A DNA stretch of 64,000 nt from Yuukianura sp. NJ FZ-2021 (GCA_046563655.1 CM102286.1:1178001-1242000); one strand, 5' to 3'; counted from the stretch's first letter, positions 41,541 through 64,000 are shown. Translations and numbers: made by a program. The notes: generated by a model from the sequence alone, not told the origin.

Positions 41541-42301
41541 CTTTTTGTTTCAAAATTTATGAATCAGAAATTCAACTAATAGTAGAAATTTGGTTTGATT
41601 ATAACCGGGAGACGTTATGGACAAAAAGCATAAAGAGTAACTAATTTGTATAAGTTTGAAGCCACTTTGTGTTCTACGGAGCGGATGGACTTAAGTTTTT
41701 TGTTTGTTCTGCTATCATTTCTAACAAAAGTTTATTTATAAACATTTTTTTTTACTTTGAACTCAAAAGAAGTTAATCTTTGACAAGTTGAAAAAGAACA
41801 ATGAAAACATAAAGCAAACAACGATAAATGGCATGTAGAATGAAGAAAAGATTGAAACATTTCATTTCTGGGCTAAGCATCCACATAAACTGCCAAATCA
41901 ATTGTTCAAATTGTTGTTATTAAATAGTTTTGTGAGGCCACTTTATTATTATAAGTTAGTTACACGTAGTAATTTACATAATTAAACATTTTGAATACTC
42001 TTCAATAATAATTTACCCTCAAAGTACCGAGTTTATCTCCGAATCGGAATTCAATATGTTCATATAAAGTAGAACGTATTATTTAAGATGTATGTTAGGT
42101 TAAAATTACAACTTATGTTCCAGGAACTCCAAAAACCAAGAACATTCAATTTAAAACCTGTTTCATCTTTTACCGAGTTTCAATGGTTGAACATTTGCAT
42201 GAAGCAGAAAACTCGTAGCTTTGCTGTTTGTTGTTCCTCACGACTTTCAATTTATTGTTCAAACCAATTTATTCCAAATTTTACACAATTCAGAAAAATT
42301 T

Positions 42302-42852
42302 TTATTTTTGCAGAGACTGGATCCATGCCGTCATCTCCTGAATGTCAACCTAAATAAAAAAAAAAATTTTTTTTTCGAAAATGTTTCAGCCTGAAGTTAG
42401 GAAAAAATCAAAATTACGTCTCCAGAGCGATCCGTGTCTGTCTCGCACACAAAGTCTTCGAAAGTTTTTCCCTTCATTTTCGGATACTGCGTTGAAATCA
42501 GTTCAAAAATGCTCTCAAATTCTTCTTTGCTAATAATCCCATCTTCGTTTGTATCAGCCATTTTTGCATACCATTGAGCCTCAAGCTCAGGCAAATGTAA
42601 AAGGCGCAGAATCTGATCCAGGTAGGCCATTTTAAGGCGTCCTTCATCGAACCTCAGATAGAAGTTTGTGTACGCTTGCAATTGGGTTTCCGTACGTTTG
42701 TATCCCAATGCCTGCAGTATGTTCCGATTTTCAACCTGCGTGTCGACACTGTCCGTTTCTGGATCGTAGGATCCAAAAGTACGAAATTTTGCAACTATTT
42801 TAGCTATTTCTTCTTCCGTGTATGGAACAGACATATCACGATCCGATTCCAT
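42302..42852 (-). CDS. Small EF-hand calcium-binding protein (calmodulin-like fold, degenerate N-lobe)
   Basis: Exons 42852-42418 and 42349-42302. EF loops are DTNEDGIISKEE and, across the splice junction, DTDRSGDVDIQE. Confidence 0.8.
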
Positions 42853-43075
42853 TTTTTTTCTTCAAAATTTAAAGCTTGCAGTTAAGAGTCTCAACCGTTT
42901 CGCTTGAAAATATATGCGTGACTGATGGTCCGGAAAAAAATTTCACTTCCAATTACATGGGTTTTAGATTGCATTCCCACTAACGACTGGCTTGTGTTTT
43001 TAATTGATTTATCAAAATTAATTTAAAGACAAAAAAATTAAAGACATTAAAGAACCGCAGTCACGGCAGCACGCC

Positions 43076-45071: not shown

Positions 45072-47064
45072 TTAAGACACAGTGTTATTTTTAGTTGGTA
45101 GAACAATTGGAAGTGAAAGTTGCGTTACAAAAAAGTTGGTTGGATCCCATTTCCGTTTTTGTTCAACCAATTTGTTCAAATTTTGTCCATAATTTCGAAT
45201 GAGATGATCTTTGACGTCCAAATCTGGATAATTTTGGTACGTTTCTCCTCCGTCCATGAATTGCACAGTGTCCCAAAGTTCATAGAGGAAGTTCATGCCT
45301 TGGTGGACTTGCGCAGGGTCAGAAGAGCCTTCGTAGTGAATCGTGATGTCCAGAAGTGAGTCTCTGTGGACATAGGACATGTCTGTCTTCTGGAAGTCAT
45401 GGATCGCACCCTGCTCAGAGTTGCACAGAATCCAAATGTTGTTTTGGGGAATTCTCTCCAGAACGGCAGCAACTGCGTCCATTTGAGCCCTTGTGAAGTA
45501 CTTTTTAATGAAGAAGGATTTGGCCTTGAAGTAGCGTGGAGCTGCAAGGTCTTTGCGCATGCTCTTCAAATAGGTCAGAAATAAATCGCCGTTTAACAAA
45601 TCAATCATTTGCGTTCCAAGATTTTTGGACGGGACTTCTTCCGTTTTTGGAGAAATTATTGGGGCGTAACTGTTCATGACAACGAACTGAATGTAAGAGG
45701 GAGAAGATTGAACAATTTTGAACGGTTTTGGAAAAGTTTGAAAAAGAACTTTCAAAAATTCGGTACTGTTTTTGGGTTGAACTTTTGAATCTTGAATATG
45801 AACAGCAGCAAATTCAATTCCAGAAGAAATCGGAGGAAGCAACGAGTTGTAATTGTCTGCAAAAAAAAAAAAAACTTAAAGTAACTCAAAATTTCAAACT
45901 ATATTGATACTCGATTTTTTTTTTAAATTGTGAATTTTTTGTTGTTTTGTTGTTGTTGTTTTTTTGTTTTGGTTTCTTACCACTTGTAATAGTAAATCCA
46001 AGAAAAATTGTGGGTTCATTGACCCTGATCCATTTGAGCATATTTTGAAAAGCGATGTAAGACGTGCCAAAATCTTTCAGTTTATAACGCAGTTTCACAA
46101 AAGTCATTTTCATTTTGCTGGCTTCAAACAATTTGATCTTGAATCTTGTCACAATTCCAATGTATCCCGGACCATGTCCACGCAAAGCCCAAAACAAATC
46201 CGAATTCTCCCGCTCATTTGCCACCACAATTTGACCACGCCCATCAACCATTTCAAATTCAATGACATTGTCAACTGCCAAGCCATACACATGTGAAAAG
46301 TATCCAACTGCCCCGCCAATAATGTGGCCGCCGATTCCCACCGTCAGACAATTGCCCATTGGAATTGCATAGCCACCATTTTCCCAAAAGTAAGCATGTA
46401 CTGGCCCCACCAAAGCTCCCGGCTCCACCAGCCCCACCGCGTTGGCCCCACTTCCTTCCACACTCATTTTCTGCATGTTCCTGAAGTCCACCACGAGAGT
46501 GTGGTTGGTGCCCCACCCAATGCTTTCGTAAGAGTGACCACCACTGTTCGGCACAACGTGAATCCTCGTCTGCAGTCCACATTTGACGGCAGTCGCCACG
46601 TCATGCGCAGACGTCGGCAGCAAATAAGCCACTGGGTAAACTTTTTGTATGCGCAGATTCCATTGAAGATTGAGGTGATTGTAGTAGTCGGAAGTGAGGT
46701 CACGAAGTACGAACTTTTCTGAATTGAATTCATGTATTTGTAAACATCTTCTGTAAGCTTCGATTTTGTCATTCTGCCCCGGAAAAGCGGCGACTTTTGT
46801 CCGCTGCGTCGAAAAGTTCTGAATTTTTTGAAAGAGACTTGACTGCGTTGAACAAAAATTTGATTCGTTTCTGAGTTTGTAAATTTCGAAATTTGCGATG
46901 CAGGTATTTAACCGGTGAGTTTGAATATATCCAAACTTGAAACTTGACAGAACTGAAATTCAAAATTTTGAAAATATTTTAAACTAGGAATTGAAAACGA
47001 CAAACCGTTTGACAAAATACGAGTAGTACTTACTAGTAAAAAGAAAGATGCAAAAAATATTCAT
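45072..47064 (-). CDS. Secreted BBE-like FAD-linked oxidase, copy A (no vitellogenin domain)
   Basis: Exons 47064-47034, 46952-45981 and 45856-45072. Signal peptide; FAD_binding_4 motifs NSGGHSYE, GNCLTVGIGGH and SDLFWALRG; BBE C-terminal motif YQNYPDLD...YGQNLNKLVEQKRKWDPTNFF. Confidence 0.88.
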
Positions 47065-48005
47065 TGTGTGGAAATTAAAAGTTTAAAAAAATGGAAATGT
47101 TATAAAAACTTTCTTGTCAAACTGAAATTAAAAATTTTTGATAAAAAAAAATTGTCTTGTTCAACTGTTAAATGACTTCTGATTTTAAAATTTCAAAATT
47201 GACTTTCCAGTTGGAACTAAAGATTTTGAATACACAGAATTAAGAGTGATGCTGTTGCGATTGAGTCATTTTTAGGCTTGACGAGTCTAGAAGAGATTGC
47301 TAGTTAGCGTGAATTTACGAAAGTTGATAAAACGAGATTATTTTGACACTTTGTGTAAAAAGTACAACAAAAAATAATAAGCTGCTAAATATACATACCA
47401 AAATCAAATTTTTTGGGACAATAAGCCGAAAAAATGAAGCATGCTGCAGTCAAAAAAAAAACAACATTCATAAATTGAACAAACAGAAAACGTTTATGCA
47501 AACGTCGCAAGTTGTTGACCTTCATTTTTTTCTGGATTGAACTTTCAATGAACTTTGACAATTCTTAGAAAAAATTTCAAAATAACTTGTGCCATGCGTC
47601 AATTATGGTTAACAGGGTCGCATTAGGTCACGGCAAGCATGACAATCTTCCAAGAAAACATGCCGCTTTACACTGAAACTACAGTGACAATACAAAACTG
47701 ACATAATCAGCAGCATAGTCTAGTTTACCAAAGATTATGTCAAAAAGTTCCAGGAAAAATGTTTCTCTTTGTCCATAATACTAAAAAAAATATCAAATTG
47801 AAATGATTTTTTTTAATTACATCGAATTTTGTCTTTGTTTAATTTACAAATGAAATTATGTATCAGCATACAACTGTCCAAATTTAGAAATTCTAAAGAA
47901 AATCACTTAAATTTTAATTGTTGTTGAAATCAAAACTACATTTTGCATTTATATAGTTCAAAAATCATTCAAATGTTGCACCATTTTACAGAACTTTGAC
48001 AAATT

Positions 48006-51000
48006 CTAGTACTCAACAGTGCTGTTAATTCTTCTCCTCGGTGGAACAATTCTTGGAAGTGAAAGTGGCGTGACAAAAAAGTTGGTTGGATCCCACTTCT
48101 GTTTTTGCAGTTGCAAACGGATCAAATTTTGGCCATAATTTCGAATGAGATGATCTTTGACGTCCAAATCGGGATAATTTTGGTACGTTTCTCCTCCGTC
48201 CATGAATTGCACAGTGTCCCAAAGTTCATAGAGGAAGTTCATGCCTTGGTGGACTTGCGCAGGGTCAGAAGAGCCTTCGTAGTGAATCGTGATGTCCAGA
48301 AGTGAGTCTCTGTGGACATAGGACATGTCTGTTTTCTGGAAATCATGGATTGCACCCTGCTCAGAGTTGCACAGAATCCAAATGTTGTTTTGGGGAATTC
48401 TCTCCAGAACGGTAGCTACTGCGTCCATTTGAGCCCTTGTGAAGTACTTTTTAATGAAGAAGGACTTGGCCTTGAAGTAGCGTGGAGCTGCAAGGTCTTT
48501 GTGCATGCTGTTTAGAAAAGCAATGATTTCCTGGTCGGCTGGAAGATCCATGAACCTTGTTGTGTGACTGTTGAAGTAGAGGTCAGCATCGGTCAACTTG
48601 CCAACGGTCATGAGCTGACCAGTCTTTGCATGTGGAATGACAATGGGTGCATAGCCGGTCATGACCACAAATTGAATGTAGTTGGGAAAAGATTGAATAA
48701 TTTCGGCCGGTTGTGGAAATTTTTCGAGCAGAACGCGAACAAATTCTGAGTAGTTTTTTGGTTGGACGTTTGGATCTTGAATGTGGACAGCAGAAAATTC
48801 AATTCCAGGAGAAACAGGAGGATACGTAGAGTTGTAAGTGTCTAAAGAACAATTTTAAGTTTGAAAATTTTGAAATTTTTGAAATAAAATAAAATTTCTT
48901 GAAAGTTTTTTTTGAAAATTTCTTTGAAATTCATACCGCTTGCCATCATAAATCCGATGAACGCTGTAGGCTCATTGGCCTTTATCCACTCCATCATATT
49001 TTGAAAGCCGATAAAAGCCGGCGCGAATTGTTTGACTTGATAGCGCAGTCGCACAAGCGTTATATTGATTTTGCTGGCTTCAAATAGCTTGACCTTGAAA
49101 CTAGTCACGATTCCGATGTACCCTGGACCATGACCACGCAGAGCCCAAAACAAATCCGAATTCTCCCGCTCATTTGCCACCACAATTTGGCCACGCCCAT
49201 CAACCATCTCAAATTCCACGACATTGTCAACTGCCAAGCCATACTGTGTCGAAAAGTATCCCACGCCACCACCAATTGCATGTCCACCCATGCCCACCGT
49301 CAGGCAATTGCCCATTGGCATGGCATAGCCACCGTTTTCCCAAAAGTAAGCATTCACTGGCCCCACCAAAGCTCCTGGTTCGAGTCGCCCCACCGCATTG
49401 GCCCCACTTCCTTCAATGCTGATGTTCCTCATGTTCCTGAAGTCGACCACTAGCGTTTCGTTGGTGCCCCACCCAATGCCTTCATAAGAGTGACCACCAC
49501 TGTTTGGTACCAAATGAATGTTGGTCTCCAGACCGCATTTGACGGCACTCGAAACATCCTGCGCAGAAGTCGGCAAGAAATAAGCAAGTGGGTAAACTTT
49601 TTGTTTGCGCAGATTCCATTGAAGGTTGAGGTGGTTGTAGTAGTCGGAGTTGAGGTCACGGCTAACGAATTTGTTTGTCTTGATCCCGTTGCTTTCTATG
49701 CATTTTCTGTACCGATTAATTCTATCTCCGTTTGTCTAAAAACAGTTATGTTTTTAAACCGACCTTTTGAAAAAAATTTTCATTCATTTTTAAAACTTTG
49801 TAAAAGAAAATATTTTGCCTTGTTCCTTCTCCAAAACGCTGCTTGCTCTGGTGCAATTTCATCTTCAAAGTATGAAGCAAGATTGAATTCAGCTTGAAGA
49901 TTGTTAAATGTAAAATCAGAAATTTGTATGGACGAAGCGGGAAAAGTTTGAAATTGGCTCCTTTCGAATGGATCAATTCCAACAAGTACTGCTTTCTGAG
50001 CTACTGTGGTGTCACGTGAGCGAAAATTTGTGGAAACTTCCAAGTAAATGACAAATTTTCGTTCTGGTCCACAAGTAACAAACTGCGTAGTGAAAATTCC
50101 CTTTGAAAAAAAAAGTTAACAATTCCAAAAAAAAATTACAGTAAAATTCAAAAAAGTGTAAATTTTTAGTTACTGTTTGATTCAATGATCGTCCTTGTTT
50201 TTGACAGTATCGAAGGTCATTTGATTTTCGGAATTCAAACATTTTGGAATTCGCACCACAGAATGCCCGTAGTTCATTCAAATGTGTTTCATCCTAAAAT
50301 TACAATTTGAAAATAGTAAAATCTCAAAACAAATTCTGGTTTTCAAGAAATATGAAATCCAAATTTTGAAAAATTTTACTTTTTCCTCAGAACTCCACTG
50401 TCCAGGTTCAGTTCCAGAGTTTTGATTTTCCAAATCCTCATCTGAGTTTGTGTCTTCCGAACTGAGGTCATCCGATGACCTTTGACCTGCTGAACTTTGA
50501 CTCAAACTACCTTCCTCTACAGTGTACTTGGCCTCACATTGACCAAAACTCGACTTTTCCTGGACAGAGTACTGAATTTGAGTGGCGCCATCTACGTTTG
50601 TACTGATTCTGCGTGAAGTACTTCCAGTATTGAGAATGAACATAGAAACTAGAGATTTTTTGATGTTGAGTGCCCAATCAGGATGCTGGAATTGCAATTT
50701 CATTGAAATTGGTTGTGCAGAGGAGTCAACCGTCACTTCACCCGGAGCTTCAAAGTACTTCCGAATTTCTTCGGGAGGCAAAATTTCAGCCAGCGGCTCT
50801 TTTTGAAAAACTCGCAACTTTTCACACTGAAAGTTTAAGTTTCAAATTGTTAATGTGGATTTACAATGTAAGGTATATAGGGGTCAAAGGTCATTGACCT
50901 CGGAAGGTGACTGACCTGAAAGCGGATCTTGTTGGTTCCAACAGGTGCTGACTTTAGTTCGTATTGTATTGAGTAGTTATCTAATGCATCGCTGGGAAGC

Positions 51001-51203
51001 GTCCATGCTGGAGACGCGAATGCAGTTGAGTGAATGTCGTACGTGTAAGTTTTTCCTGGTCGAAAACCGTGAAGTTGACCATTTCCAGGGGTCAAAGTTA
51101 ACGAAACTGAAAATCAAAATTTGGCAATGTCAATCTTTTGAAAAAGTTATACTTTTTGAAAATAAATCTTACATATCAAAACGAGGACGCTGGAGATCCT
51201 CAT
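48006..51203 (-). CDS. Vitellogenin_N-like domain fused to BBE-like FAD oxidase, copy B
   Basis: 31-nt signal exon 51203-51173. LLTP-like exons read GFRPGKTYTYDI, PDWALNIKKSLVS, YSVQEKSSFGQCEAKY and FRKSNDLRYC. The FAD exon (about 49735-48938) has NSGGHSYE and GNCLTVG, followed by the BBE exon (about 48841-48006). The junction into the oxidase probably needs a GC donor near 49818. Confidence 0.75.
50888..50900. promoter_or_regulatory. Perfect IR1 palindrome AGGTCA-T-TGACCT overlapping a DR1 (GGGTCA-A-AGGTCA) in intron 2 of copy B
   Basis: Exact EcR/USP-type consensus inside the 89-nt intron 50827-50915. Function is inferred only. Confidence 0.5.
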
Positions 51204-51862
51204 GTTGATGTTGGTATTGATGCCAAGCTAGAGTGTAACTGATTGACTTGTAGAAAATTTTATTTCAGCAAAACCGTTCAAAAATTTAAATTGAAATTTC
51301 ATTTTGTAAAGGACGAGCTATTTATAACCTTTGCTAATCCAGAAATTGCACCAACACAACATTTTCAGCTTGGCTAATCAAATTAATGAATTAATTACTC
51401 AAGTTAGCTTAGCTAATGAAATTATGTTTATTCATTTCATCATTTTTGCATAACAGTAACAAAAATTTATCTCCTGCATAAAGTCAATACTAAAAGTTGA
51501 AGTTCCAAAGCTCAGGATTGAAACTTTTGCAGCCTCATAAAGCAGAGTTGACAGTTTTTTTTGTTTGCAAAATTTTCGTTTTTTGCATAAAGGCAAAATC
51601 CAAAATCTTGCCTCATGCTTCCTACGACTGCAGAAAAACTGCAATACAAAAAAATTCTACTTGAATAAGCTCAAGATAATGTTCAAAAGTAAAATACAAC
51701 GGCTTAAACTTACAACTTTTTTCAATCCAAAAATATAAAGATAAAACTTACTGGTAATAAGAAAAAAGTTCAGCACAAATTATCTAAGTATAGTTTATGA
51801 ATAATTCCAAAATTTTAACAAAAATTAAAAATCTTAAAAAAAGAACAAAATCTTAGAAATTA

Positions 51863-54800
51863 TTAACCGCTACTCTGCGTGGAATTGACAGGAAGTGACA
51901 ATTGAGTGACAAAATAGTTGGTTGGATCCCATTTCGTCTTTTGTTGAATCAATCTGTTCAAATTTTCACCATAATATCGAACATGATTATCCTGGATATC
52001 CAAATCAGGATAATTTTGATACGATTGACCTCCGTCCATGAATTGAATAGTGTCCCACAGTTCATACAAATATTTCATTCCTTCTTCAACTTGCGCAGGA
52101 TCAGAAGAACCTTCGTAGTGAATCACAAGTTCCAAAAGTACATCGCGATGAACATAAGCTGTTTCGTTTTTTCGCAAATTTTGAATTGCTCCAAGTTCAG
52201 TGTTGCAAAAAAGCCAAATATTTCTGTTTGGGATTCTCTGCAGAACTTGAGCAACTCGTTGCAGTTCGGCCGCTGTGAAAAATCTTTTGATAAAAAATGC
52301 TTTTGCTTTGAAGTAACGCAGAGCAGCGTTTTCTTTGCGCAGACTCTTCATGAACGCAATTCTTTTAGCGTCTGGTTGCGGAATGCCGTTGCGAATTCTC
52401 AAAATGTCGTCACCGGGAGATAAAATATTGGTTTGATTTTGATTTGGATTTGGCGGTTTGACGGTAATTGGGTAATATCCGGTCGAATCTACAAAGTGAA
52501 TGTAACTTGGAAAAGTAGTAAAGGAACGAAGTGGTGGTGGGAATATTTCAGACAAAATTTTCAAAAATGTTGAGCTTCCTTTCGGTTGAACATTTGGATC
52601 TTGAATGTGCACAAAAATGAAATTGATGCCACCAAGAGCTGGAGGGAGCGTTGACAAGTGGCGTTCTTTTAAAACAAAAAATTTCATCAATGTATAAAAT
52701 TTTTAAATTCAAAGTTTGAAAAACTTACCGCTGGCAATGTAGAAGTTCATAAAAACGGGTTCGTTCACTTTACTCCATCGTATCATTTTTTGAAAAGCAA
52801 CGTACGTTGGAACAAAATCTTTGACGGCATAACCTAGTCGAACGAACGTAATTTTCATCTTGCTGGCTTCAAACAATTTGATTTTAAATCTTGTCACGAT
52901 TCCGATGTACCCTGGACCACTACCACGCAAAGCCCAAAACAAATCCGAATTCTCCCGCTCATTTGCCACCACAATTTGGCCACGCCCATCAACCATTTCA
53001 AATTCAATGACATTGTCAATTGCCAAGCCATAAACTGAGGAGAAGAATCCCAACCCACCTCCAATCGCATGGCCACCCATTCCCACCGTCAGACAATTTC
53101 CAACTGAAACACCGTAGCCACCATTTTCCCAAAAGTAAGCAAAAACATGCCCCAGCAAAGCTCCCGGCTCCACCAGCCCCACCGCATTGGCCCCACTTCC
53201 TTCCACACTCATTTTCTGCATGTTCCTGAAGTCCACCACGAGAGTGTGGTTGGTGCCCCACCCAATGCTTTCGTAAGAGTGACCACCACTGTTCGGCACA
53301 ACGTGAATCCTGGTCTGCAGTCCACATTTGACGGCAGTCGCCACGTCCTGCGCAGACGTCGGCAGGAAATAAGCCACTGGGTAAACTTTCTGTTTGCGCA
53401 GATTCCATTGGACGTTGAGGCGATTGTAGCGGTTGGAATTGGAGTCACGTGGAACGAATTTACTGCGCATGACTCCGTTTCTCTCCAAACAGGTTTGGTA
53501 CCTTCTCAGTCGACTAGTTTCCTGAAATGAAAACATTTAATTTCTTGGCTAACTTTGCTATTCCAAAGTTAAATGAGCTTTTCTTCCGTTTTTTTTACAG
53601 TTGTTGCATTATTGGTTGGATTTCTGGAGTTCGGTTTTGCATTTGCGGAATTTCCAAAATGTAGTCCATGTCGTGCTGGTTTGTAAGTAAAATCGGTTAG
53701 TTCTTGCACAGGCGCTGGAATTCCATGATACTGCAGTGCTTTAGTGTAGCTGATGTCCACTAACAGCATACTCTCCACATCATGCTGTGATCCGTTACGA
53801 ATCATCTTGTGCGAAATTTCAAGAAGGCTAACGTTTTTCGGATGTTGTCCACAAGCCATGATTTGCATTTCAGAGACACCCTGTTTAAAAAAATGGATTT
53901 TGGCAAATTTTCTATAAAAAATGCCTTTTTGTTCTGTAAAAAGCAGCTTACAGTTCGACGTGTTTTTGGGCTCACATTTCCAAAATTTGTTTGGCAGTGA
54001 TGTAAGTCAGTCGTTTTTCGAAATCCGTACAACTTCGTACCAGTTTCGCAAAAACGCGACAACTCCTGAAAATGTTCGTTTTCCTAAAAAATGTTGACAT
54101 GCCGACAAACAGATAGGGAAAAAATATAAAGTAGCGAATTACTTCCGCTACTTATGAATTGCTTTTTGTCTTACTGGATTTCGATTCGGTTTCACTTCAT
54201 GTTCGTAAGAATTCCAACGCGTTGGAATTCCGTTTTTGAACTCTTGTGCGACTTGTTGACTTATCCAATCAAAATCGTTCTGAACCGGAGCATGAACGGG
54301 ATCTTTGAGCCATGCTTCGTAGTTCCATGAGTCCAGGAAATCTTCATCTTGAGGTAGACCATGACGCTTGAATGGCCAAGTATTGTCGACATACACTGTA
54401 TTCTGTTGAGATTCAGCTGGTAAAACTTCTTGCATGTCATAGGTCACCGGACACTGCCCAAGTATTGACCTCTCCTGGACAGAGTATTGCTGTGAAGTAG
54501 GATGTGCTTGAGTGATGCTGTTCATACTTTGTGAAGCAGTGTTTGAATTTCCCAAGAAAGTGAACCTAGAAACTTGTGTTTTCTTTAAATTCAAAGCCCA
54601 TTCGGGTAAGTTTGCTTGAACTTTCATAGAAACCGGTTGACCCAAACCATCCATCGTCACCTCCATCGGAGATTCAAGAAAACTTCGGATTCTGTCCGAC
54701 ATTTTCAACTCTCGATTCGCTCCATTCCGTTTTTCATACTTGAATATCCGAAAGTCTTGAGGCTAAAAATAAAAAACAGTTTTCTATCAAAATTTTCAAA

Positions 54801-55173
54801 GTTCATAAAATTACAAAGTATTCAAACTTTTAGTGTAAAAAGTCAAATGTCACTGACTTGTATGAGCAGCATGTTCTTCCCAACAGCGGTGACTTTCAGA
54901 AAGTACTGCGCAGAAGCTGTTTCTTCAAAGTTGTCACTCGGAAATCCAGGCGGCGACATAAAAGAATTGATGTCGCCATGTACTGCATAAGTGTACATCC
55001 GACCAAGGGCAAAGTAATTCGTCTGTGCTCCGACGTACTGGAAACTAAATACATCTGAAAAGCCAAGTTCAAAATAATTCTTAAAAACTTCTAAATGATA
55101 GAGAATTTTAGAATTTTTGGCAAATGAAAAGATGGAACTTGCAAGTAAAACAGAACACGATGACCGCCCTCAT
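51863..55173 (-). CDS. Vitellogenin_N-like domain fused to BBE-like FAD oxidase, copy C
   Basis: Signal exon 55173-55143 (GC donor). Then FALGRMYTYAVHG, PEWALNLKKTQVS, YSVQERSILGQCPVTY and FRKTTDLHHC. A phase-0 intron joins ...NNATT to ETSRLRRYQTC; NSGGHSYE, GNCLTVG and YQNYPDLD...KWDPTNYF follow. Confidence 0.82.
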
Positions 55174-55756
55174 TTTTCTAGAAAAAAAAATCACCAGAAA
55201 TTACAACTTTACATTTGGAACACTTTTTGATTCGAAGTGAAATTGGCAAGTGATTTTGGTATAAGGAGGTTGAGCACCTAACTTTTCCTTTCTGCGAGTT
55301 GATGCATAGTTTTCAACAAATTGAAACGTTTCACCTACAGTGAATAATACGCCAATCCAAAAAATTACAAAACGAAACTGCTTAACTAGCCAACAAAAAG
55401 GCTGAATGTTTTGTTTGTGCGCAACAAAAAGAAGAAAGTGAAGAGAATAGCAATTAACATCATGAAAAGTCAATCAGCGAATCAAAAAATAACATGAAAC
55501 GGATACGCATCAAAATATACTTCAACAGAGAAATTCTTCCTACCTTTAGCTAATTTTTGGCAATGGTAAAATCAGATGGCATTTTTTGTACTTCATGTTT
55601 TTGAAAACCTAACAACTGCTGAAAAAAAGTAAAATAGTTTACAGCTATACATATATATTTGGATCGTCACGAAACTTTTTAATATTAAACCAAAAGTTCA
55701 AATTGCTTATAAAATATCACAAACCAATCAGTATTAACACAAAATTCCAAAAATTT

Positions 55757-58700
55757 TCAAAATTGGTAGCCGTTACTCCTCGTGACAGGAAGTGACAATT
55801 GAGTGACAAAATAGTTGGTTGGATCCCATTTCGTTTTTTGTTGAATCAATCTGTTCAAATTTTCACCGTAATATCGAACATGATTATCCGGGATATCCAA
55901 ATCAGGATAATTTTGATACGATTGTCCTCCGTCCATGAATTGAATAGTATCCCACAGTTCATACAGATATTTCATTCCTTCTTCAACTTGCTCAGGATCA
56001 GAAGAACCTTCGTAGTGAATAGTAAAATCCAAAAGTACATCGCGATGAACATAAGCTGTTTCGTTGTTTTTAAACTTTTGAATTGCTGCAAGTTCAGTGT
56101 TGCACAAAATCCAAATATTTCTGTTTGGAATTCTCTGCAGAACTCGAGCAACTCGTTCCAGTTCAGACGCTGTGAAAAATCTTCTGATAAAAAATCCCTT
56201 CCCTTTGAAGTATCGCAGAGCAGCATTTTCTTTGGTCACACTCTTCATAAATGCAATTCTTTCGACGTCGGGTTGTGGATTTCTGAAGCGAGTTCTTAAA
56301 ATGTCGTCTTCTGGAGAGAAATCACTGGTTTGATTTTGATTGGGATTTGGCGGTTGGACGGTAATTGGGGAATATCCGGTGTAATCTGCCATTTGAATGA
56401 GATTTGGAAAAATAGTTATGGAACGAGCTGGTGGCGGGAAAGTTTCAAAAAGGACTTTCAAAAACGTTGAGTTTCCTCTCGGTTGAACTTTCGGATCTTG
56501 AATGTGATGAAAGCCGTAGGTAAAACCTGCACCGATTGTAGGGAGAGTTGAGACGTAGCCATCTTCAAAATCCAAATTAAAACAAAGTTAAGGTTAGTCC
56601 AATATTGGCAAACTGAAATTGGAAATTATTTACTTTCTTCAAAAATTTTCAATCTCTGATCAAAAACATACCGCCAGCGAGGGAGAAGCTCATAATAACG
56701 GGTTCATTGACCTTAGTCCATTGAATCATCTTTTGTAAAGCGAGATACGTTGGAACAAAATCTTTGACGGGGTAACTTAGTCGCACAAACGTCAGTTTAA
56801 TGTTTTTGGCATCGAACAATTTGAATTTGAATCTCGTCACGATTCCGATGTACCCAGGACCATGACCACGCAGAGCCCAAAACAAATCCGAATTCTCCCG
56901 CTCATTTGCCACCACAATTTGGCCACGCCCATCAACCATTTCAAATTCAATGACATTGTCCACTGCTAAGCCGTACAGTGATGAGAAGTATCCCACACCA
57001 CCACCAATTGCATGCCCACCCATTGCCACTGTCATACAATTTCCAACTGGTATGCCATAGCCACCATTTTCCCAAAAGTAAGCAAAAACATGCGCCAGCA
57101 AAGCTCCTGGCTCCACCAGCCCCACCGCATTGGCCCCACTTCCTTCCACACTCATGTTCTGCATGTTCCTGAAGTCCACCACGAGAGTGTGGTTGGTGCC
57201 CCACCCAATGCTTTCGTAAGAGTGACCACCACTGTTCGGCACAACGTGAATCCTGGTCTGCAGTCCACATTTGACGGCAGTCGCCACGTCATGCGCAGAC
57301 GTCGGCAGGAAATAAGCCACTGGGTAAACTTTCTGTTTGCGCAGATTCCATTGGACGTTGAGGCGATTGTAGCGGTTGGAATTGGAGTCACGTGGAACGA
57401 ATTTACTGCGCATGACTCCGTTTCTCTCCAAACAGGTTTGATACCATTTGAGTCGACTAGTTTCCTGTAATGAACACATGAAATTCTTGCTCAACTTTGC
57501 TATTTCAAACTTATATGACACTTTTTTCCGTCTTATTTTTACCGTTGTTGCAGTATTAGTTGGATTTCTGAAGTTCGGATTTTCGGAATTTCCAAAATGC
57601 AGTCCATCTCGTGCTGGTTTGTAAGTAAAATCGGTTACCTCTTGCCATGGCGCTGGAAATCCGTGATACTGCATTGCCATTGCATAGCTGATGTCGACTA
57701 ACAGCATATTCTCCACATCATGCTGCGATCCGTCACGAATCATCTTATGCGAAATTTCAAGAAGGCTGACATTGTTTGGATGTTGACTGCAAGCCATTAT
57801 TTCCATTTCTGCTACAGCCTTTGTAAGAAAAAACAGTGAATTTTGGAAACTTTTCAAATGAAATGCCTATTTGTTTTGAGTACAACAAAGGATTTACAGC
57901 TCGAGGTTCTTCCGAGTTCACATTTTCAAAATTTGTTTGACAGTGTTGTAGCTCAGTCGTCTTTCGAAATTTGTACAATTTGGCTTCACTTTCGCAGAAA
58001 CGATATAACTCACGAACATGTTCAGTTTCCTGAAAAGAAAAAGTGTTCAGAAAGTTTCAAGTAATAATTCTTTTTAAAGTCTTTACTGTATTGCGGATTG
58101 AGTTCACTTTGACTTCATTTCCAAAAGAATTCCAATGCGTTGAAATTCCGTTTGTGAATTCCTGCGAAACTTGTTGACTTATCCAATCAAAATCGTTCTC
58201 AACCGGATTGTGCCCAGGATCTTCTTTGGGCCATGCGTCGTAGTTCCAGGAGTCATCATCATGTTGAGGCATACCACTGCGTTTAAATCGCAAAGTGTGG
58301 TCGACATACACTGGATTATGTTGAGATTCAGTTGGAAATACAATGTGTTGCATGTCATAGGTCACCGGACACTGCCCAAGTATTGACCTCTCCTGGACAG
58401 AGTATTGCTGTGAAGTAGGATGTGCTGGAGTGATGCTGTTCACACTTTGTGAAGCAGTGTTTGAATTTCCCAAGAAAGTGAACCTAGAAACTTGTGTTTT
58501 CTTTAAATTCAAAGCCCATTCGGGCAAGTTTGCTTGAACTTTCATAGAAACCGGTTGACCCCAACCATCCATCGTCACCTCCATCGGAGATTCAAGAAAA
58601 CTTCGGATTCTGTCCGACATTTTCAACTCTCGATTCGCTCCATTCCGTTTTTCATACTCGAATATCCGAAAGTCTTGAGGCTAAGAATAAAAAAAATAGT

Positions 58701-59090
58701 TTTCTATCAAAATTTTCAAAGTTCATAAAATTACAAAATATTCAAACTTTTTGTGTAAAAAGTCAAATGTCACTGACTTGTATGAGCAACATGTTTTTCC
58801 CAACAGCGGTGACTTTCAGAAAGTACTGCGCAGATGCCGTTTCTTCCAAGTTGTCGCTAAGAAATCCAGGCGGCGACATGAAAGAATTGACGTCGCCATG
58901 TACTGCATAAGTGTACATCCGACCAAGGGCAAAGGAATTAGTTTGTGCTTCAGCGACATTGAAGCTGCGCGCGTCTGAAATAACAAATTCAAAATTATTC
59001 TTACGGAATAGTTTAGATTTGTTGAACTTTTTGAAAATACAAAAAAATATGCAACTTGCAAATGAAACAGAACACGATGAACTCCCGCAT
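55757..59090 (-). CDS. Vitellogenin_N-like domain fused to BBE-like FAD oxidase, copy D
   Basis: Same exon plan as copy C. ORF 56649-57857 reads open from the last LLTP-side exon straight into the FAD domain. Motifs NSGGHSYE, GNCMTVA and YQNYPDLD. Confidence 0.82.
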
Positions 59091-59989
59091 TCTCGAATAG
59101 AGTAAAACAAAACTCTGCACAAACATCAACTTTTATTTGTAAAACTCTTGAATGCGACGCGAAGTGAAAATAGGAACTGATTTTGGTTCGGGGATTCTGC
59201 ACACCAACTTATCCTTACTTAGTTTTCAATTTGAAACCTAGCCAATGTGCCTTTCGGTTTCACCTTACAGTGAAAAATTTAACACATTTTGGCAATTAAA
59301 AAATACAAATCGAAAGCTTGTACTAATTACCAAAAAAAATGTTTATTTTTATGTTCATGTAACGAAAGGAACAAAGTGAAAAGAATAGAAATTAACTTAA
59401 GGAAAAGCGAATAAGTAAATCAAAAAAATAACACAAAACGGATACACATCCAAAAATTTCTTTAAAATTGGATTACGTACTACACAAATATTAGGCAAAA
59501 TCTAACCTTTGAATCATATGTGAAACGAATCGCATCGTCTTCGAAGTCCTCAAGCGTGCAAACTACGTTAACAGAGAGATTTTTCCCACTTTTTAGTTTT
59601 TTGGTAAAATCATTTTTGTAGTTATTAATTTTGTAATTTGGAAGTACTAAAAAAATCATAATGAATGCCTGTGTGTTGTTACGCTTATAGATCAGAGGTC
59701 AGTAACCCCAATCCGTTGAAATTGAAAAAATACGCAGAACTACATCTGAAAATTGAGATTTTCATTTCATTTTTTTTTTACTAAATTTCATGTTTTTGAA
59801 AAACAAAGACATAAGTAAAATAGTTTAAAGATGTACTTATTTTTGATTGTTAACAATTTTTGTTATGCTTAGGAGGGATTTTGACTTAACCTAAAATTGT
59901 AATCTTAATCCTAATTCTAAATCTATAAATCTAAAAAACCAAAATTCTAAACTAATCCTAACATAAAATTGTAAACTTTAAATTCTAAA

Positions 59990-62900
59990 CTATCCGTTAC
60001 TTCGCGTGGAATTGACAGGCAATGAAAGTTGAGTGACAAAATAGTTGGTTGGATCCCATTTCGTTTTTTGTTGAATCAATCTGTTCAAATTTTCACCGTA
60101 ATATCGAACATGATTATCCGAGATATCCAAATCAGGACTATTTTGATACGATTGACCTCCGTCCATGAATTGAATAGTGTCCCACAGTTCATACAGATAT
60201 TTCATTCCTTCTTCAACTTGCTCAGGATCAGAAGAACCTTCGTAGTTAATCGTAATGACCCAAAGCGAGTCTCGGTGGACAAAAGCTGTTTCGTTTTTTC
60301 GAATTTTTTGAATTGCTCCAATTTCAGTGCCACACAAAATCCAAATATTTCTGTTTGGAATTTTCTGCAGAACTTGAGCAACTTGTTGCAGTTGAGCCAT
60401 TGTGAAAAATCTTTTGATAAAAAATGATTTTGCTTTGAAGTAGCGCAGAGCAGCATTTTCTTTGCGCAGACTCTTTAGAAATGCGATTCTCTCGGCGTCT
60501 GGTTGTGAACGAAAGGCGCGAGTTCTCAAAACGAGGTCAGCGGGTGACAAAATGCTGGTTTGATTTTGAAATGGATTTGGCGGTTTTACGGTAATTGGCG
60601 AATTGCCGGTCAAATCTACAAATTGAATGAAATTTGGAAAAGTAGTTGAGGAACTAACTGGTGGCGGGAAAGTTTCAAACAAGATTTTCAAAAATGTTGA
60701 GTTTCCTTTTGGTTGAATTTTGGGATCTTGAATGTGCACAAAGCCAAAGGTAATACCGCCCCCAACTTCAGGGTTAGGTGACACGAGTCCATCTTTAACA
60801 AAGAGTTTAACAATGGATTCAACGTTAGAAAATTTTGAAAATGTCATTTTGAAATTCAAATTTTGAAAAAGTGGAACTTACCGCCTGCGAGGAAAATGTT
60901 CACATAAATGGGTTCATTGACCTTGCTCCATCGAATCATATTTTGTAAAGCGAGATACGTTGGAACAAAATCTTTGACGGCATAACTCATTCTCACAAAA
61001 GTAATTTTCATTTTGGTGGCATCGAATAATTTGAATTTGAATTTCGTCACGATTCCGATATACCCTGGACCACTTCCACGCAGAGCCCAAAACAAATCCG
61101 AATTCTGCCGCTCATTTGCCACCACAATTTGGCCACGCCCATCCACCATCTCAAATTCAACGGCATTGTCAATTGCCAAGCCATAATGTGCTGAGAATAA
61201 TCCCACGCCACCACCAATTGCATGACCACCCATCCCTACCGTCAAACAACTCCCGAGTGGTATCCCATAGCCACCATTTTCCCAAAAGTAAGCAAAAATA
61301 GGCCCCAGCAAAGCTCCCGGCTCCACCAGCCCCACCGCATTGGCCCCACTTCCCTCTACACTCATTTTCTGCATGTTCCTGAAGTCCACCACGAGAGTGT
61401 GGTTGGTGCCCCACCCAATGCTTTCGTAAGAGTGACCACCACTGTTCGGCACAACGTGAATCCTGGTCTGCAGTCCACATTTGACGGCAGTCGCCACGTC
61501 ATGCGCAGACGTCGGCAGCAAATAAGCCACTGGGTAAACTTTCTGTTTGCGCAGATTCCATTGGACGTTGAGGCGATTGTAACGGTTGGAACTGGAGTCA
61601 CGTGGAACGAATTTACTGCGCATGACTCCGTTTCTATTCAAACAGGTTTGATACATTCTCAGTCGACTAGTTTCCTGAAATGAAAACAATTAAATTCTTG
61701 GTTAACTGTGGTATTTCAAAATTATATGAAACTTTTTTCTGTTTTTTTTACCGTAGTTGCATTATGAGTTGGATTTCCGTAGTTCGGTTTCGGATTTGTG
61801 TAATTTCCAAAATGTAGTCCATGTCTTGCCGGTTTGTAAGCAAAATCGGTTACTTGTTGCACTGGCCCAGGAATTCCGTGATACTGCATTGCTTTAGCGT
61901 AGCTGATGTCGACTAGCATCATACTGTCCACATCACGCTGTGATCCGTCACGAATCATCTTGTGCGAAACTTCAAGAAGGCTAACATTTTTAGCATGTTT
62001 GCCACAAGCCATTATTTGCATTTCCGCTACACCCTGTGTAAACCACAATGAATTTTGGCAAATTTTAAAATGAATTTAAAAAACTTACTACAACCTAAAA
62101 CACTTACAGTTCTTGGTGTTTTTGGTTCTAGATTTCCAAAATTTGTTTGACAGTGTTGTAGGTCAGTCGTTTTTCGAAATCCGTACAACTTCCACCCGGT
62201 TTCGCACAAACGCAGCAACTCCCAAAAATGTTCGGTTTCCTAAAAAAAGAAACTTGTTTTAAATGCCGACAGACTAGGGAAAATCATAATGCAGCAAACT
62301 ACTTTCGCTACTTAATAACTGCGTTTTATCTAACTGGGTGACGAGTCGGTTTCACTTCATTTTCATAAGGGCGCCAACTTGTCGGAATTCCATTTTTGAA
62401 CTCCTGCGCAACCTGTTGACTTATCCAGTCGAAATCGTGCTCAACCGGAGTGTGACCAGGATCTTTGAGCCAAGCGTCGTAGTTCCAGGACTCCAGGAAA
62501 TCATCATGTTGAGCCATACCACTGCGTTTGAATCGCAAAGTGTGGTCGACATACACTGGATTATGTTGAGATTCAGTTGGAAATACAATGTGTTGCATGT
62601 CATAGGTCACCGGACACTGCCCAAGTATTGACCTCTCCTGGACAGAGTATTGCTGTGAAGTAGGATGTGCTTGAGTGATGCTGTTGGCACTTTCTGAAGC
62701 AGTGTTTGAATTTCCCAAGAAAGTGAACCTAGAAACTTGTGTTTTCTTTAAATTCAAAGCCCATTCGGGTAAGTTTGCTTGAACTTTCATAGAAACCGGT
62801 TGACCCAAACCATCCATCGTCACCTCCATCGGAGATTCAAGAAAACTTCGGATTCTGTCCGACATTTTCAACTCTCGATTCGCTCCATTCCGTTTTTGAT

Positions 62901-63331
62901 ACTCGAATATCCGAAAGTCTTGAGGCTAAGAATAAAAAACAGTTTTCCATAATTTATTAGAAATTTAGAAAATACTAAACATTCAAGCTTTTTAGTTTAA
63001 AAAGTCAAATGTCACTGACTTGTATGAGCAGCATGTTCTTCCCAACTGCCGTGACTTTTAGAAAATACTGCGCAGACGCTGTTTCTTCAATGCTATCATT
63101 CGGGAATCCAGGCGGCGACATGAAAGAATTGACGTCGCCATGTACTGCATAAGTGTACATCCGACCAAGGGCAAAGGAATTAGTTTGTGCTTCAGCGACA
63201 TTGAAGCTGTGCGCGTCTGAAATAACAAATTCAAAATTATTCTTACGGAATAGTTTAGACTTCTTGAACTTTTTGAAAATACAAAAAATATGCAACTTGC
63301 AAATGAAACAGAACACGATGAACTCCCGCAT
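59990..63331 (-). CDS. Vitellogenin_N-like domain fused to BBE-like FAD oxidase, copy E
   Basis: Same exon plan, with signal exon 63331-63301. Motifs NSGGHSYE, GSCLTVG and YQNSPDLD...KWDPTNYF. Confidence 0.82.
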
Positions 63332-64000
63332 TCTCGAATAGAGTAGAACAAAAATCAGCACAAACATCAACTTTTTATTTGTAAAACTCTTGAATGCGAA
63401 GCGAAGTGAAAATAGGAACTGATTTTGGTTCGGGGATTCTGCACACCAACTTATCCTTACTTAGTTTTCAATTTGAAACCTAGCCAAAATGTTCCTTTCG
63501 GTTTCACCTTACAGTGAAAAATTTAACACATTTGGCAATTAAAAAATACAAATCGAAAGCTTGTACTAATTACCAGAAAAAATGTTTATTTTTATGTTCA
63601 TGTAACGAAAGGAACAAAGTGAAAAGAATAGAAATTAACTTACGGAAAAGTCCATCAGTAAATCAAAAAATAACACAAAACTGATATCCATCCAAAAATT
63701 TCTTTAAAATTGGATTACGTACTACACAAATATTAGGCAAAATCTAACCCATGAATCATATGTGAAACGAATCGTATCATCTTCAAAGTGCTCAAGCGTG
63801 CAAACTACGTTAAGAGAGAGATTTTTCACACTTTTTAGTTTTTTGGTAAAATCATTTTTGTAGTTATTAATTTTGTAATTTGGAAGTACACAAAAAATCA
63901 TAATGAATGCCTGTGTGTTGTTACGCTTATAGATCAGAGGTCAGTAACCCCAATCCGTTGAAATTGAAAAAAAAAATACGCAGAACTACATCTGAAGATT
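62560..64000. repeat. Recent tandem segmental duplication: near-identical to about 58300-59750, including intergenic DNA
   Basis: The upstream non-coding sequence of copy E (63331-64000) closely matches that of copy D (59090-59750). The repeat unit is about 4.2 kb. Confidence 0.85.

Follow-up and report, generated by a model that had tools for sequence, protein, structure and literature searches.

Tandem BBE-like oxidase genes in a springtail genome: a probable microbial acquisition joined to an LLTP-like part

How does a family of BBE-like flavoprotein oxidases come to stand in a row in an animal genome, and does it descend from a microbial gene? This question is raised by a 64,000-nucleotide stretch of the genome of Yuukianura sp. 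NJ FZ-2021 (GCA_046563655.1 CM102286.1:1178001-1242000), hereafter called the window. As an earlier note on this DNA had observed, the window holds five tandem BBE-like oxidase genes. Here, we describe their anatomy, the part that precedes the oxidase in most of them, and their probable history.

The array and its gene models

The five genes (c1 to c5) form a tandem array on the minus strand, on which all exons, introns and codons given below also lie. The array covers positions 45072-63331; the span of 45072..61689 proposed earlier is too short. Each copy possesses a FAD exon of ~265 aa and a BBE exon of ~265-280 aa (stop-to-stop ORFs, 5/5 copies), and an independent repeat search returned direct-repeat families with five copies, whose start-to-start distances are ~2.95, 3.8, 3.9 and 4.2 kb. 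The duplication unit takes in the upstream flank: the segment 5′ of c4 at 59423..59722 (no strand assigned) is 96% identical to 63665-63964 upstream of c5 (repeat family D17).

Three copies, c3, c4 and c5, have a complete in-frame coding sequence of seven exons (A to G) and 938-940 aa. In agreement with the earlier description of the LLTP part as intron-rich, five of their six introns lie within the first ~410 codons. Copy c5 (59990..63331, 940 aa; gene model and Pfam) is composed of exons A 63331-63297 (signal peptide), B 63206-63020, C 62925-62335 (Vitellogenin_N piece), D 62239-62108, E 62033-61752, F 61674-60882 (FAD_binding_4) and G 60792-59990 (BBE), with introns of 74-95 nt that are all GT..AG. 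Copy c4 (55757..59090, about 940 aa; gene model and Pfam) comprises exons A 59090-59056, B 58964-58778, C 58680-58087, D 58029-57898, E 57818-57543, F 57464-56672 and G 56562-55757. Copy c3 (51863..55173, 939 aa, in frame with one terminal stop) comprises exons A 55173-55139, B 55044-54858, C 54762-54175, D 54083-53952, E 53880-53599, F 53521-52729 and G 52665-51863, again with GT..AG introns throughout (63-95 nt). The first exon is uncertain in these models: the donor that looks strongest works in c5 alone, and an in-frame reading of all three copies relies on the weak donors GTTGCA and GTTCCA. The c3-c5 proteins begin with a hydrophobic stretch, after which no TM-like segment follows, and are predicted to be secreted.

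Copy c2 (48006..51203; Pfam and junction search) is a divergent fused gene with exons A 51203-51173 (MRISSVLVLI, donor GTAAGA), B 51106-50916, C 50826-about 50380 (Vitellogenin_N match), D 50293-about 50177, E starting at 50100, F ending at 48937 and G 48841-48006; its E/F junction is ambiguous, with two in-frame candidates that both have weak donors. Finally, c1 (45072..47064; ORFs, Pfam and tblastn) has three exons only: a signal-peptide exon at 47064-47034 (MNIFCIFLFT, donor GTAAGT, phase 1), a linker and FAD_binding_4 exon at 46952-45981, and a substrate/BBE exon at 45856-45072 that includes the stop. Thus, while c2-c5 carry five extra exons with short introns 5′ of the oxidase, encoding the signal peptide and a Vitellogenin_N-like piece, c1 carries only the signal-peptide exon. 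Indeed, N-terminal queries from c3 and c5 matched the interval 46700-48010 only at E > 0.1 (tblastn), so that no LLTP exons were detected in c1. The LLTP part that the earlier note ascribed to these genes is thus present in c2-c5 and missing from c1.

The oxidase module

The Pfam scan covered c1, c2, c4 and c5, and in all four it found FAD_binding_4 (PF01565; E 4e-19 to 5e-24, 69-85 bits, cutoff 26.4) and, at the C-terminal end, BBE (PF08031; E 2.5e-11 to 2.5e-13, 43.8-50.2 bits, cutoff 20.6). A second run on c1 gave FAD_binding_4 at 79.9 bits. The c3 protein is 82% identical to c4 and c5 and has a tblastn match to P0247, a Folsomia protein discussed below, at E 4e-128. From the pairing of PF01565 with PF08031, we assign the five genes to predicted BBE-like flavoprotein oxidases of the VAO/PCMH superfamily.

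The modules are open in 5/5 copies and interrupted by one intron each, as had been noticed before. This lone GT..AG, phase 1 intron of 63-124 nt occupies an identical site in all five (c5 60793..60881, c1 45857-45980, c2 48842-48936, c3 52666-52728, c4 56563-56671). Four environmental ORFs (P0365, P0364, P0106 and P0102) end at this site and a fifth, P0250, begins just past it.

The claim that all five copies keep the two FAD-anchor motifs was borne out by motif, spacing and alignment. The motif PNSGGHSYE(S/G) is kept in every copy and the Cys motif reads GNCLTV in c1-c3, GNCMTV in c4 and GSCLTV in c5, the distance from His to Cys being 62 residues in 5/5. The His codon of c5 (61432..61434; equivalents in c1 46534-46536, c2 49490-49492, c3 53279-53281 and c4 57222-57224) aligns with the His of GGGHSY in glucooligosaccharide oxidase 1zr6, and the Cys codon of c5 (61246..61248; equivalents in c1 46348-46350, c2 49304-49306, c3 53093-53095 and c4 57036-57038) with the Cys of HGTCPAVG. 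In the phmmer alignment they land on H76 and C136 of the 1zr6 chain, which we take to be the FAD-linking His70 and Cys130 of the mature numbering, the 6-residue offset being consistent for both. The SGGHSYE region is identical across copies and sits within a gene-conversion tract, so the five His motifs should not be counted as independent of one another. At Cys+3, all five copies have Val, presumably the oxidase-type gatekeeper described in work on Phl p 4 and BBE. FAD would be bound covalently by the conserved His (8-alpha) and Cys (6-S).

For the FAD half, the best solved relatives are PpBBE-like 1 (6eo4, E 8e-41), glucooligosaccharide oxidase (1zr6, 4.8e-33) and chitooligosaccharide oxidase (6y0r, 1e-32), all of which we take to be CAZy AA7 enzymes. 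The window genes have in common with them the FAD_binding_4 and BBE architecture and the aligned His and Cys of the bicovalent link, but the three enzymes are devoid of the LLTP domain found in c2-c5. In the substrate domain the similarity is weak (E 6e-14 to 5e-4 against the three entries), with matches of the substrate half at E 5e-4 for GOOX and 1.7e-5 for ChitO. The first Tyr of the Y-x-N-Y motif is kept in 5/5 copies, while the second is replaced by Ser in c5 (YQNS versus YQNY), and the residue altered in the D396N entry of PpBBE-like 1 is Ile in the window. Because of this Ile and of the YQNS of c5, the substrate and chemistry of the window enzymes may differ from those of oligosaccharide oxidases. 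A carbohydrate-like hydroxyl would be oxidised and the electrons passed to O2 to give H2O2, oligosaccharides being our leading guess for the substrate.

The LLTP-like part and its junction with the oxidase

LLTPs (vitellogenin, apolipophorin, apoB, MTP) are an animal family, and the window genes share with them the first part of Vitellogenin_N (PF01347). The match is carried by exon C in 4/4 fused copies (30.5-34.7 bits, cutoff 24; E 7e-8 in c3 and 1.9e-7 in c4) and covers about 68-156 of the 590 profile positions. Exons B, D and E gave no Pfam match at E <= 1, and neither the helical half of PF01347, nor DUF1943, nor the lipid-cavity domain was matched by Pfam on the N-terminal exons. With a profile of the N-terminal part, the top PDB sequence match was honey-bee vitellogenin, residues 116-185, and is weak (E 0.052). 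The AlphaFold model of this part is poor (mean pLDDT 50.3, pTM 0.33); with this low-confidence model, Foldseek placed vitellogenin, lipovitellin and apoB at the top, though with E 0.025-0.33 and nothing at E <= 0.001, and no LLTP stands among the 50 VIA matches listed for it. In contrast to LLTPs, the window genes have only ~400 residues ahead of the oxidase and no helical half. Since ~410 residues precede the oxidase and exons B, D and E have no Pfam match, the window genes are best read not as LLTPs but as carriers of an LLTP fragment, at most the N-sheet.

In the c3-c5 models, a phase-0 intron joins the LLTP-like part to the oxidase, and we infer the splice from exon E to exon F. The two sets of exons might instead belong to two adjacent, unfused genes. 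Indeed, the oxidase of c1 stands alone behind its own signal-peptide exon, and unfused secreted relatives are common (P0003, P0102, P0107 and P0108). However, the FAD exon of c3-c5 lacks a start codon and signal peptide of its own, the linking intron is canonical (phase 0, GT..AG, 77-78 nt) and connects exon E within one frame of ~940 codons, and the LLTP block precedes the oxidase at equal spacing in 4/5 units. Moreover, both parts share the same dN/dS (LLTP part 0.31-0.33, oxidase part 0.27-0.48), and the NCBI model of a Folsomia gene has both parts in one protein. We therefore consider two separate genes to be unlikely and presume that the fused form is transcribed.

This Folsomia candida protein (XP_021961662.1 / OXA45260.1; P0247, 1474 aa) is the closest named relative and carries the same fusion: a signal peptide, an LLTP-like N-terminal part, then a BBE-like oxidase. 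Its N-terminal part is 31% identical to that of the window genes (E 2e-12), with the motifs LPEWALN(I/L)K and G(E/Q)C..(S/T)Y in common, and its oxidase is ~50% identical to the window modules. It differs by having two oxidase modules in one reading frame, where the window genes have one each, and its N-terminal part gave no Pfam Vitellogenin_N match at E <= 0.01. The source names of P0247 are "uncharacterized protein LOC110857375" and "6-hydroxy-D-nicotine oxidase". The fusion is older than the tandem amplification in the window. Of the earlier proposal of capture by exon shuffling followed by amplification, the fusion and the tandem copies are observed, and exon shuffling is suggested by the gene anatomy.

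Origin and proposed history

Contamination or misassembly, in which a fungal or bacterial contig would have been joined to animal DNA, could be suspected for a family described as typical of microbes and plants (PMC4898691). It is, however, hardly conceivable here: the spliceosomal introns are as short as those of neighbouring genes, the oxidase is fused in frame to an animal-type domain, the five copies are embedded between other multi-exon genes, and homologues are found in Folsomia on contigs of 3.5 and 4.4 Mb. The oxidase part has the same GC and GC3 (0.44 and 0.42-0.43) as the LLTP part and the CPQ-like neighbours; introns are at 0.26. The dN/dS values show that the window genes are under purifying selection. 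Together, this neighbour-like composition and a dN/dS of 0.27-0.48 point to an old, domesticated transfer rather than to contamination, against which the earlier note had argued too. Of the typical animal neighbours that it named, the CPQ-like genes are present (Peptidase_M28, PA), while DUSP12 was not found: scans of 42 + 17 ORFs gave no DSPc match, and the motif HCxxGxxR[ST] is absent from all six frames.

The homologue set comprises 101 proteins, in which the animals named are limited to Folsomia candida, Bradysia coprophila (2) and Patella vulgata; organism names were obtained for 7 of the 30 top representative clusters (Folsomia, Pseudolycoriella, Actinomortierella, Diplonema, Conidiobolus (2) and Entomophthora). 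In the ML tree, built from 38 labelled rows, one clade (95/92) unites the window copies with Folsomia and the fungus gnats. This arthropod clade groups with Conidiobolus and Entomophthora (92/93, moderate), then with Nocardia ninae (92/79). Sequences from Dikarya, Mortierella, chytrids, plants and other bacteria branch outside it, and the limpet (Patella) homologue is placed elsewhere. A tree constrained to unite all 12 labelled animal rows was worse by 28.1 lnL (p-AU 0.025), the group having been defined once the tree had been seen. A clade of arthropods and Nocardia was not rejected (p-AU 0.41), so a fungal and an actinobacterial donor are not separable. Since unlabelled sequences sit near the arthropod clade, animal or fungal lineages hidden among them could alter these conclusions.

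These trees support the horizontal origin proposed earlier, and the oxidases do not fall into a broad, vertically inherited metazoan clade among the labelled rows. Alternatively, a BBE-like gene of an ancestral opisthokont or early animal might have come down vertically, surviving in springtails and a handful of further animals after almost all other lineages had lost it. Such descent would fit the labelled relatives that come closest outside the animals, since these are fungi and thus opisthokonts too; a large, paralogue-rich family can mimic transfer, and many close relatives are unlabelled. We nonetheless hold it to be very improbable. The closest neighbours of the arthropod clade are one fungal subgroup and Nocardia, to the exclusion of the other fungal, plant and bacterial sequences, animal monophyly including the limpet is rejected, and named animal matches are limited to Collembola, Sciaridae and Patella.

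A single microbial transfer might also have taken place in another soil arthropod (springtails, fungus gnats or mites), from which the window lineage then received the gene. The Pseudolycoriella sequence P0103, together with P0003, is sister to the springtail-type group (96-100 support), and P0106, an environmental ORF of the fungus-gnat-type subgroup, stops at the intron site of the window genes. Collembola and Sciaridae, the odd pair to which the closest relatives of the window oxidases belong, recur in other genes of patchy distribution. For canonical terpene synthases, a different enzyme family that occurs patchily in springtails, mites and fungus gnats, PMC11665903 proposes transfer among exactly these arthropods, as PMC13389597 does for one HGT-chimera cluster. 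The 'alien' P450s of Bradysia are reportedly a further case of patchily shared genes. The direction is, however, not readable from the present trees, which hold only two labelled springtail-type genomes and no mites, and such a relay seems to us possible but doubtful.

The explanation that we favour, and regard as probable as a whole, is that of a domesticated microbial oxidase, fused to an LLTP part in the springtail lineage and tandemly amplified. The catalytic module would have entered an arthropod lineage horizontally, long ago, from a microbe whose closest labelled relatives are entomophthoralean fungi and Nocardia-like actinobacteria. It would then have gained one spliceosomal intron and taken on host composition. 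In the springtail lineage, it would have been joined at an intron behind exons for a signal peptide and an LLTP N-terminal beta-sheet of the vitellogenin/apolipophorin type, yielding an "HGT-chimera" that was then duplicated in tandem, with copies homogenised patchwise by gene conversion and one copy losing its LLTP exons. The product would be a family of secreted, AA7-type oxidases in which the LLTP piece, without a lipid cavity of its own, may serve as a module for binding or for addressing.

In yolk proteins, it is the vitellogenin-type N-sheet that makes contact with the receptor. One can imagine that the N-sheet is an address tag that takes a foreign, H2O2-producing oxidase into the lipoprotein/yolk uptake route, and that the intron-bearing family moved between springtails and fungus gnats. 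This is a long shot; if true, springtail eggs or haemolymph would have a built-in antimicrobial or antifungal enzyme.

The Folsomia genome paper lists AA7 enzymes, in aggregate, among the horizontally acquired genes (PMC5490193). The transfer of an AA7-type oxidase into springtails has thus been reported already, the fused form apparently not. HGT-chimeras of arthropods are a described class, in which Folsomia candida is the richest species (Kapoor et al. 2026, PMC13389597); flavoproteins, oxidases and vitellogenins do not occur among the chimeras named in its main text. In the window, the oxidase interval is of non-metazoan descent according to the trees and the AU test, and the Vitellogenin_N piece is in frame with it in the c3-c5 models. 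The window genes thereby resemble the chimeras described in that text, which likewise combine non-metazoan and metazoan parts in one frame under purifying selection.

Five tandem copies of a BBE-like oxidase

The oxidase genes form a head-to-tail array of five copies on the reverse strand between 45072 and 63331 (copies 1 to 5 at 45072-47064, 48006-51203, 51863-55173, 55757-59090 and 59990-63331), each copy having two large exons that are apparent as stop-to-stop ORFs. Independently, a repeat search delineated the array as five-copy direct-repeat families with spacings of about 2.95, 3.8, 3.9 and 4.2 kb. FAD_binding_4 and BBE were both detected, far over the curated Pfam cutoffs, in the four copies scanned (4/4 for each domain); copy 3, which was not among them, is 82% identical to copies 4 and 5 and matches a Folsomia candida protein (P0247, XP_021961662.1) with an E-value of 4e-128. 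A single phase-1 GT..AG intron of 63-124 nt splits the module at the identical site in all five copies, and the spliced oxidase modules are open in every one of them.

As claimed in the earlier note, the FAD-anchoring motifs PNSGGHSYE and G(N/S)C(L/M)TV are kept in 5/5 copies, with a distance of 62 residues between the His and the Cys. In a phmmer alignment, these residues fall on H76 and C136 of the chain of the glucooligosaccharide oxidase 1zr6. We take H76 and C136 to be the 8-alpha-histidyl and 6-S-cysteinyl FAD links, which would be His70 and Cys130 of the mature protein; in both cases the offset is six. Two environmental relatives are built differently: P0102 has GGLSFE and VNQLTAG, and thus neither the flavin-linking His nor the Cys, and P0365 has GASSYE, without the His. 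That all five copies keep both residues thus cannot be taken for granted in this clade.

The exons of copy 5 were read by eye, their bounds were transferred to the other copies via a MAFFT alignment, and the first exon was then revised. For copies 3, 4 and 5 this gives an in-frame seven-exon CDS of 938-940 codons, in which a signal-peptide exon (A) is followed by four exons of a part resembling large lipid transfer proteins (LLTP; B to E) and by the FAD_binding_4 (F) and BBE (G) exons. Each model has six introns, all GT..AG, with lengths of 57-109 nt; the first ~410 codons contain five of them, which agrees with the earlier description of an intron-rich LLTP part next to an oxidase region of ~530 codons with one intron. 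The predicted proteins have a hydrophobic N-terminus and no membrane-like segment further on. Overall, the observation made from the sequence, five copies with their domains, motifs and intron pattern, is confirmed.

The first exon is the weak point of these models. A 49-nt first exon with the best-looking donor (GTATTT) was rejected, as it puts copy 4 out of frame and has no GT in copy 3. The frame of copy 4 is broken by the T run that follows the first coding exon, which is T7 there (59041-59056) but T6 in copy 5 (63283-63297); in copy 3 the adjacent GT is lost. This homopolymer difference between copies 4 and 5 could be an assembly error. A weaker donor 35 nt past the ATG (GTTGCA or GTTCCA) keeps copies 3 to 5 in frame, and a first exon ending there would be the preferred model. 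Copy 2 is far more divergent and has the same exon series, with a clean signal-peptide exon (donor GTAAGA) and two possible readings of its E/F junction. In copy 1, the signal-peptide exon (47064-47034, donor GTAAGT) is joined directly to a short linker and the FAD domain. Searching the 1.3 kb upstream by tblastn with the N-terminal parts of copies 3 and 5 revealed no LLTP exon (E > 0.1). Copy 1 has lost the host-derived LLTP part.

The N-terminal part and the age of the fusion

Exon C matches Vitellogenin_N (PF01347) in all four fused copies, at 30.5-34.7 bits against a cutoff of 24 and over profile positions ~68-156 of 590; exons B, D and E have no Pfam match at E <= 1. Compared with PDB sequences, a profile of the N-terminal part has residues 116-185 of honey-bee vitellogenin as its top, weak match (E 0.052), in which P-x-W-x-x-N and G-x-C-x-x-x-Y motifs are aligned. 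An AlphaFold model of the 396 N-terminal residues of the Folsomia protein, built from a nine-row alignment, reached a mean pLDDT of 50.3. With this low-confidence model, nothing in Foldseek reached E <= 0.001; honey-bee vitellogenin, lipovitellin and apoB ranked best (E 0.025-0.33, TM-scores of ~0.1), and a VIA comparison gave only generic sheet/helix matches (Z <= 5.6), with an LLTP in 0 of 50 rows. Altogether, the sequence matches support a putative fragment of the LLTP N-sheet. Unlike full LLTPs, the genes described here are devoid of the defining helical and lipid-cavity parts.

P0247 (1474 aa) has a signal peptide, a part homologous to exon C (31% identity, E 2e-12) and two oxidase modules. 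Since the Folsomia protein carries a homologous N-terminal part together with the oxidase, the fusion predates the split between Yuukianura and Folsomia. The fungus-gnat proteins and several environmental relatives have a signal peptide alone ahead of the oxidase. The scenario of the earlier note, in which an oxidase gained by horizontal gene transfer (HGT) was captured and then amplified, is supported with corrections, two of which concern the fusion: it came before the local amplification, and copy 1 is without the host part.

The oxidase intron also has counterparts outside the array. Three environmental ORFs placed beside the window copies (P0364, P0365 and P0102) and one beside the fungus-gnat branch (P0106) stop at the site of this intron, and another, P0250, begins just past it; as the contigs of P0365 and P0250 agree in length and source, we infer that they are one and the same. 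These stops suggest an early origin of the intron in the clade. The oxidase part has the same GC and GC3 as the LLTP part and the neighbouring carboxypeptidase-Q-like (CPQ-like) genes, the introns being much more AT-rich. In pairwise comparisons, dN/dS ranges over 0.31-0.33 in the LLTP part and over 0.27-0.48 in the oxidase part.

Sliding identity between copies is patchy, with tracts of 300 nt. Over bases 100-400 of the FAD exon (45981-46776, 52729-53521, 56672-57464 and 60882-61674), copy 1 is 92-100% identical to copies 3 and 5, against 55-78% elsewhere. Similarly, over bases 1200-1500, in the BBE exon (45072-45856 and 48006-48841), copies 1 and 2 are 96-99% identical within sequence of 55-78% identity. 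This patchwork indicates gene conversion. The His motif falls within the tract shared by copy 1 with copies 3 and 5.

Relatives and possible donors

The FAD exon was searched exhaustively with phmmer against 1.84 billion representatives, which yielded 15,247 proteins at E <= 0.001 and 93 at E <= 1e-30. A word-indexed search for longer proteins listed 101 matches, among which the only animal names were Folsomia candida (53% identity), Bradysia coprophila (two proteins, 41%) and Patella vulgata (31%). In the clusters of the 30 top representatives, seven are named (Folsomia, Pseudolycoriella hygida, Actinomortierella, Diplonema, two from Conidiobolus coronatus, and Entomophthora muscae) and the remaining 23 are metagenome or Logan sequences. 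An alignment-based homologue search (A1) brought no further named animal protein, and with Folsomia P0002 as query the clusters obtained were all generic FAD_binding_4/BBE ones from mixed taxa. In a genome scan, the best segments of bacterial relatives were just 25-39% identical; the matches listed from a metagenome scan were mostly distant relatives. One metagenome contig, L081, the sole one recovered for a near relative without taxon label, looks eukaryotic. Its positions 1-3564 hold one intron-less gene with a signal peptide (P0126), then 1.8 kb of AT-rich non-coding DNA without ORFs.

Three trees were built. A FastTree tree of 141 rows comprised all retrieved proteins of 400-660 aa (top representatives and named hits), the five window modules and two Folsomia modules, P0001 and other multi-module proteins being left out. 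A quick IQ-TREE run under a PMSF mixture used 76 hand-picked rows, including 12 of the 24 full-length bacterial loci, and a tree from a careful search was restricted to 38 organism-labelled rows, with Streptomyces thinned to four. In all three, the window copies group with Folsomia, and Pseudolycoriella/P0003 and P0004 attach to them, with Bradysia in a neighbouring group. Next come Conidiobolus and Entomophthora, then a Nocardia group; more distant still are Dikarya, Actinomortierella, a chytrid, Diplonema, plants, Streptomyces and Patella.

In the careful tree, support is 95/92 for the arthropod clade, 92/93 with Entomophthoromycotina added and 92/79 with Nocardia ninae. If all 12 labelled animal rows are forced together, a group defined post hoc in which Patella forms a long branch, the log-likelihood drops by 28.1 units (p-AU 0.025). 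For a forced group of the arthropods and Nocardia ninae, the drop is only 2.6 units (p-AU 0.41), so that the donor could be a fungus or an actinobacterium alike. The alien index, which the earlier note had put forward as a check, gives opposite answers when taken from the E-values of the phmmer search: it is negative when fungus gnats count as animals (9.6e-70 versus 4.4e-68 for a two-module Mortierella-type protein) and at least ~40 when arthropods are excluded (Conidiobolus at 5.9e-46 versus anything below the best 150 listed, > 3.7e-28). As it depends wholly on the choice of excluded taxa, we relied on the trees.

Predicted activity, published context and neighbouring genes

Among solved structures, the FAD half is most similar to PpBBE-like 1, glucooligosaccharide oxidase and chitooligosaccharide oxidase, and the substrate half to PpBBE-like 1 (E 6e-14). 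A Val lies three residues past the Cys in 5/5 copies, which, from work on Phl p 4 and BBE, presumably marks O2-reactive oxidases. The position mutated in the D396N entry of PpBBE-like 1 is an Ile here, and copy 5 has YQNS versus YQNY in the other copies; function is graded cautiously for these two reasons. From homology, the proteins are probably bicovalent flavoprotein oxidases that would produce H2O2 from a hydroxyl-bearing, plausibly carbohydrate, substrate. That this substrate might be an oligosaccharide is a more tentative proposal.

We take AA7 to be the glucooligosaccharide-oxidase family. In the text of the Folsomia genome paper, 229 of 809 HGT genes have CAZy domains and the auxiliary-activity ones are mostly AA7 (PMC5490193). 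Vitellogenin has no mention in that text, and reticuline, berberine, FAD-binding, 6-hydroxy-D-nicotine and FAD linked are absent from two of its supplements; the orthologue from Folsomia may still be listed in other supplementary data. HGT-chimeras, as defined by Kapoor et al. 2026, join non-metazoan and metazoan parts in one frame. These authors count 274 across 319 arthropod genomes, Folsomia having the most, and describe one cluster that springtails, fungus gnats and mites may have exchanged; no chimera with an oxidase or vitellogenin is named in their main text, though their supplementary data may include the Folsomia gene (PMC13389597). In Chen et al. 2024, terpene synthases are argued to have undergone intraphylum transfer in mites, springtails and Sciaridae (PMC11665903), and PMC4898691 presents BBE-like proteins as a family of plants, fungi and bacteria. 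Our literature search found nothing relevant tying berberine bridge or reticuline oxidases to Collembola, Folsomia HGT or vitellogenin.

Both AA7-type transfer into springtails and the HGT-chimera class are published, and no new category is opened here. The array is a well-preserved case of two kinds already described, the AA7-type oxidase derived by HGT and the HGT-chimera. As an example of the fate of a transferred gene it is clean: the gene gained an intron, ameliorated in composition, was joined to a host domain at an intron, multiplied in tandem and underwent gene conversion, and one copy secondarily lost the host domain. With it, the small set of families that springtails and fungus gnats oddly have in common gains a flavoprotein oxidase; this set bears on the debated transfer of genes from arthropod to arthropod. 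Bicovalent BBE-like oxidases serve as biocatalysts. To our knowledge, no enzyme of the animal BBE-like branch that carries a lipoprotein-type appendage has been characterised so far, and such an enzyme could have practical interest.

Among the neighbours named in the earlier note, CPQ is borne out by three tandem, multi-exon carboxypeptidase-Q-type genes at 35537-41549 (reverse strand), with Peptidase_M28 (E 3e-25 and 4e-21) and a weak PA domain. DUSP12 is not: 42 ORFs of at least 70 aa at 1-16 kb and 17 elsewhere gave no dual-specificity phosphatase Pfam match, and HCxxGxxR[ST] is absent from all frames of the window. Rfam and tRNA scans found no RNA gene in the window. Between the CPQ-like genes and the oxidase array lies a reverse-strand ORF (42397-42861) whose EF-hand matches are weak (E 9e-5 to 1e-3) and stay under the Pfam cutoffs throughout. 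Finally, 16020-30552 (reverse strand) holds a tandem series of at least six paralogous genes for multi-pass membrane proteins, each apparent as a pair of adjacent ORFs. The three ORFs scanned had no Pfam match at E <= 0.01. These proteins have a common C-terminus, ...LQPCKF.CGPLNYADRGML..VNEGIVNYIFTLL.IFK, and are possibly a lineage-specific receptor family.
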